64,000 nt of DNA from Schmidtea polychroa (taxonomy: Eukaryota): NCBI GenBank assembly GCA_044892525.1, contig CM097885.1, positions 26,600,001 through 26,664,000 of the forward strand, in the 5' to 3' direction. The translations under genes were made by a program, and so were the position numbers. How positions within the stretch are numbered: position 1 is the stretch's first letter; each line of letters begins with the position of its first letter. Under the pieces are notes generated by a model. It was not told where the DNA came from and did not search any database. It worked only from the letters and a program-made list of their open reading frames with translations. This document shows, in pieces, positions 44,347 through 50,300 of this stretch.

Positions 44347-47300
44347 ATGACAGACGGAATTCCAAATGTAACAGGGCTAACGGACCCACCGGAAACAAGT
44401 AATGTGCACGTCAACATTGGAGAATTCAGAGAGAAATTTCGAGGAGAGCCATTCGATGGAAATATAAACCAGCTGGAAACGTTTATAAAGGAATTCGAAG
44501 TATACATTACGATATGTCACTGGCCAGACATAGTCGTACGAGAACGAATACCCCTATATCTAAAGGGAAGCGCCCAAGACGTATACTTGGAGGCGAAATG
44601 TGATGCAACTAAGTTGAGAACGTGGAAAGAGATCAAGGAATTTTTAATAAAAACATTCGGTACCGAAAAAGAGGGAAATCGAAAAATGTTAGACTTTCTG
44701 CATCGAAAGCAGAAATATAACGAATCCAACGCGCTGTACGCATGCGAATTGAGACGACTAGCACGAGAAGCCTTCGATTCAAATCAACCAGTTCCGGAAG
44801 ACAAAATAATAGCCGTATTCGTAGATGGCATGAAACGAGAGGATATACGAGCAACCTTGGGATGCCGAGCACCAGAGACGCTGGAAGAAGCACTAAAAAT
44901 AGCTAACAAATGTGAAACTTACCTAACACCAATACAAGTAGCAGCAATGACAGCAGCCCCAGCAGCTCCAGCAACAACAGCAACAACCACAAACAACCAA
45001 GTCAATAATGCAAATCCAGTAATGAATCAATTCATCCCAGGATCGCAACAGTTGTTCAAAACTCCACAAACAAGAAACCAAAACAATGGAGGTAATATTC
45101 AAAATTTTACTAATAATTTCAGGAACAACGACATCAACAATCGAACGTGCAACATATGCCAACGACCAGGGCATTGGAGCAATGAATGTTATAAAGCAAG
45201 GATGTGTCAAAAGTGTGGGAGAAGAGGCCACACGGAAAATGTCTGCAGAGGACCCATGATGTCTATGAGCAGAGGAGGAACCAGAACCTGCTACAATTGT
45301 AATCAGCCTGGACACATGGCAAGAGAATGCACGATGAGAACCAAACCAAATCAACCAGGATCAAACAATCCAGTTCAGAACACACAAATCAACCTCATGC
45401 AGGAAATCGAACAATTAAAAGATATGATCCTGCGAATACCGACTAATAACCAACAACAACGAATCAACATGATGCAGAGCACCGAGGAAATCCGGAACCA
45501 ACCAAGTAAGCAACAACAAGATCAGCAACGAGTCGAATGGCAAAGATTACAAAACGAGGAAGCCAGAGAAATTCAAGAAAGATGGAAACAACGGGAAGCG
45601 AATCCCGGAAGAATAAATATGATGAGATTAACAAATAAAGAGGAATCGCACACTGCGGAGCAGTGTGTTAACAACGACGGGAGTGAACCGATAATAAACA
45701 AGGAGATAAAAACGACAAAAGAAGATGAGATTGATCCACGAACAGAATTGAGCAGTGAAGAGAAAATACAATTGATTAAAGAATTTACCAAAGAGGAGAA
45801 AGAAAGGAGACAAAAGAGAGATGAGAGTAAAGACGAACCAAAAAGCAATGAGATAATTACAAAAAATCGAATTCAGAGGGTACTACTACAAAAAATCGAA
45901 GACAGAATCAAAAACGAAAATCCTACATTAACTGAGGAACAAATAAAAGAAAAAGTGAAAGAGCATTGGTTCAGGAAAAATGAGTGGTTTGAAAAGAAGG
46001 AACCACATACCAAAGCTAAAATAAACATGCTGAGACAAATGCGGAGCGATCAGACGGATCAGGAAGATGAGAAAAGTGAGGTGAGTAGCCTGGGAGGCGA
46101 ATTATTTCAGTCAAGTGAGGAAAATAACGAACCGAAAACACCTCCAAACAGTGAAACACCTCAAAGTAGTGAGGAGAGTGAAAATGATGACATGAAATCA
46201 ATGATAGAAAAAGATGAAGAAGAGATATTCGAGGAAATTCTCGACACAGTAACAGAAATAGAGCGAAATGAGAGCTACATCAACGAGTTAACATACAGAA
46301 AATGCTTAAAACTTATAACTCAAGTATACCAGTGTGAAGGAGGTATAATAACGGCAGCATGGAAAGATTTAGCAACAAAATATAAAGAGAAACTAAAGGA
46401 AGCAGGCCCAGATCAATATCAAGTAAGTATTCAACACCCCGAGATTCAGATACAGACTATTGAATTAAAAGGAACAAATACCGATGAACTGTACAACTGG
46501 GTACAGGAAAAAATGGGAACGAGCCATAAAAATAAACAATTATATGTCGATGGTTACAAAGTTAAAATGGGCATACATTTGGTAGATGCGATGATATGGC
46601 CAAACGAAACTAACATCTTAACCTTAGAGAAAACCAGAGATGACGACTCGGTAGCAGAAATGTTCAAGAAAATCCAACAAGTGTTTAACAATGAAGTGGA
46701 ACCAGAATTGGAAAAGATCGAACGAAAAATAATGAAAGAAAATCAAATAATCTTAGTCAAACAAGCTATCGATCAGACAAGGAAATACATTAATAGACTG
46801 AGAGAAAGATGGCCACAACTAATGAAACAATTCGTTAAAGACGTACGAGACACGGAAATCATGAGATTCGAAGACAAACGAGCGACAGAATTGATATCTA
46901 AATACGGAGAATACGAGAGAACCAAATGCGAGCATGAAACGATAAAAATAAAGGTGAAGTTGCCAAATGAAGAGAAACAAATAATAGAAGTTAATCCCGA
47001 TTGCCAAGTTGACGAGTTAGTGCAAATCATAGATCAAGAGATCATCCAAAAAGCTCGAGAAAATAGTGAGGATGGAATGATCGAAGATGTGATAATAATG
47101 TACAACCGGCACATGCTGGAAAGAGGAGACCGAACTGGAATTTACGAACTAGGAATCTGGGAAGATGGAGCCGTCATCAATATAATCGCGATGGATGAAC
47201 CATCTGGTGGGCACAAAAACGCCACGAAAACCGAGCAACAAGTTAAAAGATTCCAATGGGGAATGAGAGCAAAGATGGATCGAATAATAGATATTTATAA

Positions 47301-50300
47301 CCATTGGCTAAAGGATGATAAACTAAAACTAGCAGCCTTCAATGACGAAGATTGCAAACTGATACCATGGAAAAAAGTGTGGATCGAAAGTGAAGCTCGA
47401 TGGGATTGGGAGCAGCAAAAGTTGGAACCAAATTGGATAGATAATATACCCGAAGAGATCGCAGCAGTATGGGTAAGAGAGAAACCGATCGATACTTACC
47501 AGGATATATTACCACAAGAATTCCAAAATGAATTACCATCAGGAGAAGATGAGGAGATACGAGAACCAGTAAGGTTAGCACCATTCACGTGGAAAATTGA
47601 GAATTGGATGGAAAAGATAAAATCAGCAAAGGAAGAGAAAATCACACGATTAGTAAGTCCACCGTTCTACTCAGGATTAGGTGAGTACAAGATGAAATTG
47701 CGAATATACCCGAACGGAGACGGGATAGGTAAAGGAAATTATGTGTCGGCATTCTTCGCCATCTGCAAAGGAAATTATGACGACAAGGTACCATGGCCGT
47801 TTAGCAGAAAAGTGACGATAGCAATCGAACCATTGAAAGATAGCCTTAACATGCATAAAGAAACATTGAAACCAGATCCAAGGAGCGCCTGCTATCAACG
47901 ACCAACAACATCAGAAAATATCGCTTCTGGGACACCTAAATTAATACGTCTAAGTTACATTGAGAATGAGCAGTCAAAATTTGTGAAAAACAATGCTATC
48001 CAGATCAGAGTAGAAGTTGAAACAGAACAAGAAATGAACCAACGACTGAACATACCAGAAAATCAACCGAGAATCTGTATGATGAGGAGAAGAGTGTCTG
48101 ATTCAGGACATCTACCAATAGACGCAGATGCAGATGAGGAGGAAGCAGCAACATTGTTGGAAGCACAAAAATGTAAGGAGTTGATGGAGATATTACAAAA
48201 CGGGGCGAAAAATCGTCGACGAGCGGTGGTAGAACTAGCAAAATGGATAGCCGAATCATGCAAAAGGATTCAAAACCTACGAAAGATCGTTAAAGCGATT
48301 GAAGAATATCGACGGGTATACGTATGGTACCCTGAACAATTTGGTGAAATCATCCGGAAATGGAAACAACAAGAGTGGGCCGAAAACTCACCTGAGAAAT
48401 ATCAATTAAAAATATTTATGCCAGATTTTGAACCAATGGAAAAGGAATTCTATACGACAGCTAAAGTCAGAGAAGTTAAAAAGAGAATACCTTATGAACT
48501 CCCATTCCACTTACAACACGAGGGACGATCATTAGACGACGATATTGAGATCGGTGTGACACCACTCCAAGGAGAAATTGTGAACAGATTAACGGTGAGT
48601 AAAATTGCAGGTAGAGAGCTAAGGAGAAGAGAGATAAAGCAAAAATCATCCACCCAACAACCAGGAAGTTTGGACACACCAGAAGTTCCAAATGCGGTTA
48701 GTGAAGTGACGATCGAAACAACGGGAGAAGACGAAATACTGGATGAATTACAAGAGATAGTAGAAGCAGGCGAGATTATGAGAGCATCGCAATCAGGAGA
48801 TCTATTTATCGACGAAGGTGAACCGACAACTGATGATTTAGATGGATTTGTATGCGCGCAGAGACAACCAGTGGAAACGACGGAAGCCGAGACGGATTTA
48901 GATAACGTGGAAAGAGGTGCCAATAAAGATGTAACCACAACCGATGAATGGAGCAACTGGAGAGTAGATCCAGGAGCGACCACGTCAAAAGATACAACTT
49001 ACAATCCGCCAAAACGGAAAGAAACCGGAACAGCTATGGATCGACGAACAAGAGGAAGACCAAAAACAGATAAAGCAGAGATCGAACCAAAATCCAAAGT
49101 TCAGGCACAAATGGAGCAGGTAAAAACTAAAATGGATAAACTAAGTGCATTAGTAAAACAAGTGAAAGTGAGGACAAGCGTCCGAGAACAAGGGACACGA
49201 TGGATAAATGACCTATTAGCCAACATGTTAGCATTAGCAAATCCAGAAGTGAAAAGAGTCATGAGGAAGGATAATATTCCGACCGAAGCCAAACAATTAT
49301 GGGCAGTATTGAAACCGATAATAATGAAAATCATGGATAATAAAATTCGATTAACGTTAAAAGATCCCGTGGAACTCAGATTAATTGTGGAACATCTATT
49401 AAGCAGATCAGAGGACCAAAATCGATTTTTAGTGGGATTAGCATATTTAGTATATAACGTTATCGGTCAATATAAAAAACGAATGCCAAAATATAACGCA
49501 ACGGGTTACGAATTCACAGTAACAGAAATAATTAAACGATCAATAGAACCATATATACTTGAACAAGGGGGATGGAGAAGCTTCATCGAATCAACTGGGA
49601 AGAAAGATCAAACGGAAATGATGCAAGCAAAGTTACGCGATTTGCTAACTGAATTCGAAGGAACAATCAATATAAACGACCCAAGAGCAAGTCGAAAGGG
49701 AATGAATGCCATAATAACCACGATATTGATATGGATGATGTGTATCAAAGGAACGGAGTCATTTGCAGTATACGACTGCGACAACATAAAAATCCATGAG
49801 AAATATTCATTAAAGGATACGGAAGACTGTAAAGCGGCAAACCCAAGAAAATTACAAACAGTCAGGGCATCAGTCTCGTACAACGTATATCAAGAAGCAG
49901 ATTTCATCAAAACTATGGTCCAAGAGTGTACGGTAACCAGAAAGATATTCGCACATCACTGCGGTTCATCCTCACACTCAACAATCATAGAACCAGGATT
50001 GGAATCGACAGTAATATTACTATCAAGAGAGGAATGCGAGGAAGGGTTCCGATCAGGGAGAATCCACTTAAGGCAAGGGATTGAAATCGCTGCAGAACCA
50101 GGAAAAATAAAAACGACTCGCGTATATACGGCGGGCAGAATCACTAAAGGAGACGGAACATGTGAGACAGGAACATACACCTTGAACGGACAACTGGTTA
50201 GTGGAGTGGTCGTGATAGAAAGTTACGAAGCTAAATTGGAAAAGTATCAAGGCTACTTTGACCCTGACACGCAAGCAATGAAGAAATACCCAAGCTGTCT

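Follow-up and report, generated by a model that had tools for sequence, protein, structure and literature searches.

A 64,000-nt window of the Schmidtea polychroa genome (GenBank assembly GCA_044892525.1, contig CM097885.1, positions 26,600,001 to 26,664,000) was found to carry a giant retrotransposon whose 3,415-aa polyprotein, encoded by open reading frame 1 (ORF1), includes three segments predicted to adopt the ubiquitin fold, here designated U1, U2 and U3 (Table 1). The element was assigned to the Burro type (Burro/GYPSM1) of Ty3/gypsy retrotransposons, a kind already known from flatworms, because the domain order of ORF1, ORF2 and the accessory ORFs is that of this anatomy. It seems fairly probable that U1, U2 and U3 are integral, non-conjugated ubiquitin-like docking domains, likely themselves uncleaved, which would be freed by the element's own protease. 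Coordinates are positions in the window, on the plus strand unless marked.

The original prediction had described three ubiquitin-like modules in the polyprotein. All three proved to lie in frame within ORF1, with the fold well supported for U1 and probable for U2 and U3, and to this extent the observation was borne out. U1 very probably has the ubiquitin fold, which is backed by a structure match and a language model; it aligns to chains of the Rad23 ubiquitin-like domain (UBL), the Rad60/Nip45 SUMO-like domain, UBX and FERM F1. SUMO proteins were its best structural neighbours but stood within 1 Z of Rad23-UBL, ISG15 and FERM, and because of this tie the SUMO matches are taken to indicate the fold only. 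The fold is also likely for U2, for which the language-model signals and the weak Pfam signals all fell inside the ubiquitin clan. For U3 it is probable on indirect evidence, namely a resemblance to U1 of the diverged homologue P0002 (see below) and a position equal to that of a published motif. Global alignments among the three domains gave z values of 1.6–6.0, with seven of the eight pairs at p of about 0.01 or less.

No ubiquitin family was above threshold for U1, U2 or U3 in Pfam or NCBIfam. Searches with the three segments against PDB sequences, at E up to 10, returned unrelated weak matches and no ubiquitin or SUMO chain, and two-sequence profile searches of the PDB likewise gave unrelated weak matches only. 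Since genuine ubiquitin and SUMO sequences in the PDB went unmatched at E up to 10, U1–U3 would be old, diverged domains. An AlphaFold check of the segments had been proposed, and it answered in part: both models were built on two-sequence alignments and are of low confidence, and U1 matched ubiquitin folds, while the Foldseek matches listed included no ubiquitin chain for U2 or U3, a result that does not exclude the fold. Among the matches listed for the large model there were TRAFs only; the small model gave nothing at E <= 0.001, and its wide search was filled by coiled coils. A repeat unit made of a helix plus a UBL was considered and rejected, since local and profile-profile comparisons among U1–U3 and the flanking helices were not significant, as was a BAG domain after U1, which found no support in Pfam.

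U1 and U2 share, in ORF1 as well as in P0002, an Ile-Trp pair ahead of the last strand, a candidate binding surface. The position that corresponds, by eye, to ubiquitin's main hydrophobic patch is occupied by Tyr in U1, Met in U2 and Gln in U3. The docking surface of these domains is probably not the one usual for ubiquitin.

A full-library search with the U1-U2 region against 1.84 billion representatives gave the single match P0002, which is 49% identical to ORF1 over the region. U2 is the best-conserved block (62%), ahead of U1 (54%), the U1-U2 linker (50%) and the TRAF-type MATH domain (48%); P0002 stops just upstream of U3, which is hence left with no homologue for comparison. Scans of metagenome and viral contigs found no relative. 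Word-index protein searches also found none, a weak negative, as two of them overlooked P0002 despite its overlap and fitting length. Copies of the element are very numerous in run X2, with 1005 contig pieces over 46400-47330, and because these copies range from <90% to >99% identity, several subfamilies of the element coexist. Among the sequencing runs listed as carrying it there was no RNA run. In the copy comparison over the same interval, 40 of 101 differences were listed; 33 of these 40 are synonymous, where random changes would give 19%; within U1 and U2 the figure is 11 of the 12 listed. The U1/U2 region is maintained as a protein, under purifying selection.

U2 is followed by a di-glycine (GG), as part of an SGG tail. 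U1 has no C-terminal glycine either in ORF1 or in P0002, and U3 ends in a single Gly. The GG was not conserved in P0002, the only diverged homologue: none of the three SGG residues is kept (0/3), the tail standing opposite a single different residue and a gap of two, even though the 22 residues that precede it are 86% identical. The GG count of ORF1 is at chance level (8 against 7.4 expected), and no LxGG was found in ORF1. When the U2 tail, E-P-S-G-G-H, is aligned to the SUMO tail numbered Q/E89-Q90-T91-G92-G93 (PMC12098989), a proline falls at position 90, four residues ahead of the bond. In SUMO4 a proline at position 90 suppresses maturation by SENPs, with conjugation obtained only for P90Q or pre-matured SUMO4, according to a preprint that itself acknowledges some contrary reports (10.1101/2022.03.23.485504). 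Nor does the PSGG of U2 match LRGG or QTGG, the tails readable by deubiquitinases (DUBs) and SENPs. Because the GG is absent in P0002, a proline occupies the SUMO4 blocking position and two of the three modules have no GG, cleavage after U2 by host DUBs or SENPs is, with high confidence, not expected to occur. The proposal that the modules are host DUB/SENP processing sites is therefore unlikely, as is that of a conjugatable modifier, and an unconserved GG had been named by the original prediction itself as grounds for refutation. Its further reading, decoys or partners of the element's RING ligases, may hold.

Release of the domains would instead depend on the element itself. A motif of the form Ile-(Asn/Cys/Phe)-hydrophobic-hydrophobic recurs at domain borders of the element (45388, 45463, 45613, 46021, 48073, 52486, 54244 and 55652), and these are likely sites of its own protease. 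A motif profile was trained on four enzyme-border sites, chosen by eye, that follow the nucleocapsid, the protease, RNase H and the integrase. On scanning the 3409 windows of ORF1 with it, aa 1317, 497, 447 and 633 came in the top seven, beside the three training sites that lie in ORF1. Four sites are above threshold in aa 431-1860, compared with 0.09 in shuffles, and none of 2000 shuffles reached four. In P0002 the top two of 876 windows are the orthologues of aa 633 and 1317. Between aa 640 and 1310 every window stays below the threshold of 11.25, with a best score of 10.0 and with aa 875 coming close; the last strand of U2, tried as a protease site, ranked 94 of 3409 and was rejected. It can be proposed with good confidence that the aspartyl protease of the element cuts near aa 633 and 1317 to give a 684-aa U1-helix-U2-MATH protein and a U3-Bcl-2-like protein, the latter ending, as judged by hydropathy, at the hydrophobic stretch before Env. 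As the element's own protease and motif would supply these products, no host protease is needed for their release.

After these cuts, the end of U2 would be left intact by host DUBs and SENPs. The MATH domain of the 684-aa product may then bind TRAF-site peptides of the host, with U1 and U2 docking partners from the ubiquitin system or from signalling, and the product would take part in TRAF/IAP/Bcl-2 survival signalling as an adaptor or decoy; for this last step the chances appear even. Such an adaptor or decoy would work beside the TRAF, IAP, RING and Bcl-2-like cargo of the element, keeping the host cell alive. Integral ubiquitin-like domains form an established class and act by binding (PMC11354881). 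U1 displays the features of this class, a predicted ubiquitin fold embedded in a larger protein and no conserved cleavable tail, and U2 and U3 likely do so too.

Some observations weigh against this reading of U1–U3 as uncleaved docking domains. The near-identical copies X12 record 6 (16 differences) and X4 record 31 (2 differences) keep the GG of U2, its tail, of the pattern E-x-S-G-G-H, resembles the SUMO1 tail QTGGH (PMC8123143), and in a fold search the low-confidence models of U2 matched other alpha/beta folds. Among further copies, X13 record 16 has one difference, of unlisted position, X2 records 23 and 24 (88% and 82% identical) cross the U2 tail without gaps, and none of the 40 listed differences falls in the tail. 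As near-identical copies keep the GG while P0002 has none, the GG may be a subfamily trait. The kept GG and the SUMO1-like tail, together with the position of the GG directly after a likely ubiquitin fold and the precedent of bovine viral diarrhoea and classical swine fever viruses (PMC8310069), favour a host SENP/DUB cleavage signal as in pestivirus inserts; the GG would then have arisen in this subfamily or disappeared from that of P0002, and the cut would part U1-U2 from MATH, with the MATH piece starting at His. Such a signal is nevertheless improbable in view of the missing GG in P0002, the proline at the blocking position, the chance-level GG count and the protease and motif that the element already has; moreover U2 has no detectable ubiquitin or SUMO sequence similarity, whereas the pestivirus insert is host ubiquitin. 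It is barely credible that U1-U2 is freed and, in the manner of the two-domain modifiers ISG15 and FAT10, becomes attached to host proteins by RING ligases of the element. Two ubiquitin-like folds are indeed followed by a GG, and two RING proteins (Pfam) and a TRAF-like protein are encoded by the element, but the modifier depends on the unlikely cleavage at a GG that P0002 does not have, a helical linker of ~100 aa parts U1 and U2, and Pfam revealed no E1 or E2 enzyme among the scanned ORFs. The tail of U2 fits the blocked pattern of SUMO4, unconjugated SUMO4 modulates SENP1 (10.1101/2022.03.23.485504) and SUMO proteins are the best structural neighbours of U1, which would suit U2 as a pseudo-substrate whose proline-blocked GG tail enters host SENPs uncut and inhibits or tunes them. 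This too is decidedly improbable, as the tail is not conserved in P0002, the SUMO4 tail residues are dispensable for the SENP1 effect (same preprint) and the tied SUMO matches of U1 indicate the fold only.

Other alternatives concern the role and the fold of the domains. U1–U3 could be purely structural and bind nothing in the host, helping folding or solubility or holding MATH and the Bcl-2-like domain in place as spacers, as the Tyr, Met and Gln at the presumed hydrophobic-patch position would allow. This is unlikely, since U2 is more conserved than MATH (62% against 48%), beyond the need of a spacer, and the other cargo of the element belongs to ubiquitin and apoptosis signalling. There is little chance that only U1 is of the beta-grasp type and U2 and/or U3 are not: the alpha/beta matches of the U2 models, the lack of a direct match for U3 and the non-significant local and profile comparisons among U1–U3 agree with it, but the signals of U2 all lie in the ubiquitin clan, the global alignments link the domains, and at the position of U3 there is a published HHpred annotation (PMC6431247). 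An extended form of the adaptor, in which U1-U2-MATH passes TRAF-site proteins to the proteasome/p97 or to the TRAF/IAP ligases of the element while the SUMO4-like blocked tail of U2 traps SUMO proteases, is quite unlikely; if true, non-conjugatable mimics would let a retrotransposon rewire the ubiquitin and SUMO signalling of its host.

The Burro polyprotein has been described with a 'Ubi2/SUMO-like (PF11976)' motif between MATH and BCL-2 (PMC6431247). The element studied here shares with Burro/GYPSM1, as presented there, MATH and a Gag bearing three CCHC knuckles, an in-frame env between gag and protease, the protease-reverse transcriptase-RNase H-integrase order, ankyrin, BIR and RING cargo and accessory ORFs, and probably also a ubiquitin/SUMO-like motif between MATH and a Bcl-2-like region and a size of the order of 25-30 kb. 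Both the type of element and the SUMO-like domain at the position of U3 are therefore already in print, which the original prediction did not note. The text of that review gives a single Ubi2/SUMO-like motif, equal to U3, and does not mention U1 and U2 upstream of MATH, which appear to be new annotations; in the open-access literature U1, U2 and Burro processing were not found reported beyond it, although Repbase, Grohme 2018 and Figure 2A of PMC6431247 may already mark domains. Burro1, moreover, is described with a single 4,873-aa ORF, whereas in the copy studied here the frame shifts ahead of the integrase and a complete TRAF-like ORF exists apart from the MATH of the polyprotein.

Like Rad23 UBL, Rad60/Nip45 SUMO-like, UBX and FERM F1 domains, U1–U3 would place a ubiquitin fold in a larger protein with no conserved cleavable GG; they differ in sitting in the polyprotein of a mobile element and in showing no detected orthology to a named host family. 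A MATH-plus-UBL architecture is found in USP7. The parallel drawn by the original prediction with cytopathic pestivirus inserts holds for a ubiquitin-like segment within a viral polyprotein and not beyond it: those inserts are host ubiquitin, cut by ubiquitin C-terminal hydrolases to give the exact NS3 start (PMC8310069), whereas U1–U3 are unrecognisably diverged, with no ubiquitin or SUMO chain among their PDB matches, two have no GG, and the GG of U2 is unconserved and ~125 aa before the next domain. With SUMO4 the U2 tail shares the proline four residues ahead of the bond after the GG; SUMO4, however, is a free, close paralogue of SUMO2, while U2 is internal, has no detectable SUMO similarity and carries an unconserved tail.

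Part of the unannotated half of the Burro polyprotein can thereby be assigned to two further likely ubiquitin-fold domains, and a map of its mature products, open to testing, can be proposed; the idea already in print that Burro interferes with ubiquitination and apoptosis of its host (PMC6431247) is made sharper. A host cleavage signal of the pestivirus kind is now unlikely, as is a modifier encoded by the transposon. As BURRO1 is an abundant, active and PIWI-silenced element in planarian tissues (PMC8532177), Burro cargo could matter in a regeneration model.

Table 1 Features of the Burro-type element in the 64,000-nt window.
Feature	Coordinates	Strand	Evidence
Primer-binding-site-like motif, end of presumed 5' LTR (long terminal repeat)	40470..40487	+	One match in window; 0 expected from shuffles
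Accessory RING protein, upstream of gag	41185..41667	+	Pfam
ORF1 polyprotein (Gag, cargo domains, Env, protease, reverse transcriptase, RNase H)	44125..54372	+	3,415 aa from TTG; first ATG 44347
Candidate aspartyl protease site aa 633, upstream of U1	46018..46035	+	Rank 7/3409 windows; orthologous P0002 site rank 1/876; cleavage predicted
U1, predicted ubiquitin-fold domain, no C-terminal glycine	46411..46635	+	Structure match and language model; 54% identical in P0002
U1-U2 linker, predicted helical, ~100 aa	46636..46938	+	Predicted models; 50% identical in P0002
U2, likely ubiquitin-fold domain	46939..47202	+	Language model and weak Pfam; 62% identical in P0002, last 22 aa 86%
SGG tail after U2	47203..47211	+	Present in two near-identical copies; absent in P0002
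TRAF-type MATH domain	47584..48018	+	ORF1 aa 1154-1298; Pfam MATH_2 E 3.8e-29; TRAF3 E 2e-30
Candidate protease site aa 1317, after MATH	48070..48087	+	Rank 1/3409 ORF1 windows; orthologous P0002 site rank 2/876; cleavage predicted
U3, probable ubiquitin/SUMO-like domain, MATH to Bcl-2-like region, no GG	48397..48603	+	Likeness to U1 of P0002; position of published Ubi2/SUMO-like motif
Probable Bcl-2-like domain, start approximate	49222..49599	+	BH2-like stretch vs Bcl-xL; position as in PMC6431247
In-frame envelope (hydrophobic leader and Monjiviricetes-type fusion glycoprotein)	49702..51534	+	PF24664 E 1.4e-68; hydropathy
Aspartyl protease, reverse transcriptase, RNase H	52153..54144	+	Pfam
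ORF2 (integrase, ankyrin repeats, further cargo)	54326..58414	+	Frame differs from ORF1
Accessory full-length TRAF-like protein (RING-like, zinc fingers, MATH)	59108..60532	+	Zinc fingers and MATH by Pfam; N-terminal RING-like cysteine pattern by eye
Accessory IAP-like BIR-RING protein	60673..61851	+	Pfam

ORF1 lies within a block of 37-40% GC in an AT-rich genome. The N-terminal Gag of ORF1 was recognised by Pfam (Retrotrans_gag E 4e-7, Ty3_capsid E 1e-6, and zf-CCHC), and three CCHC knuckles are seen in the translation. The Bcl-2-like region gave no match in the Pfam scan; Bcl-xL was matched by its BH2-like stretch only (E 0.8-1.9; 35 of 36 rows are Bcl-xL). The env lies in frame between gag and the aspartyl protease, and the hydrophobic stretch at 49702-49758, between the Bcl-2-like region and Env, could be both a membrane anchor of the Bcl-2-like protein and a signal sequence of Env. 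A dUTPase-like domain, expected of Burro-type elements at this place, was sought in the ~220-aa spacer between protease and reverse transcriptase, with no match in Pfam or the PDB. The enzymes follow the order protease, reverse transcriptase, RNase H, integrase and are accompanied by ankyrin, BIR and RING cargo; the frame switches between RNase H and integrase, at 54326-54372, which may reflect a programmed shift, a mutation or an assembly error. After the ankyrins, ORF2 aa 860-1290 (~56900-58250), for which there was no confident Pfam match, suggests a surface protein by features read by eye: a leader of hydrophobic residues, a pair of cysteine-bearing modules that look alike, and a transmembrane-like stretch.

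A coiled-coil ORF is also present downstream of ORF2, beside the TRAF-like and IAP-like ORFs. In the latter, the helical segment between BIR and RING (61450-61680) looked by eye like the UBA domain of cellular IAPs; a UBA domain found no support in Pfam and was not retained. If it were one, this segment could partner U1–U3.

The primer-binding-site-like motif is presumably one for tRNA-Pro. Two LTRs and a total length above 30 kb are expected of a Burro-type element. From this motif to the end of the window the internal region measures at least 23.5 kb, and a second LTR, sought in 36500-64000 of the window, was not found. Two ORFs, 38969-39382 and 39593-40063, lie upstream of the motif, inside the presumed 5' LTR, the second receiving no assignment in the Pfam scan. 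The long leader before gag contains two direct-repeat pairs (42493-42839 and 43074-43257), of 58 nt at 76% and 53 nt at 98%. Outside the element, an intact 299-aa ORF with HEAT/PBS-lyase repeats (24319-25218) is probably a host gene, and a match to DUF4371 slightly below the cut-off (19545-20261, minus strand) is probably a fragment of a DNA transposon, DUF4371 being a family linked to transposases.

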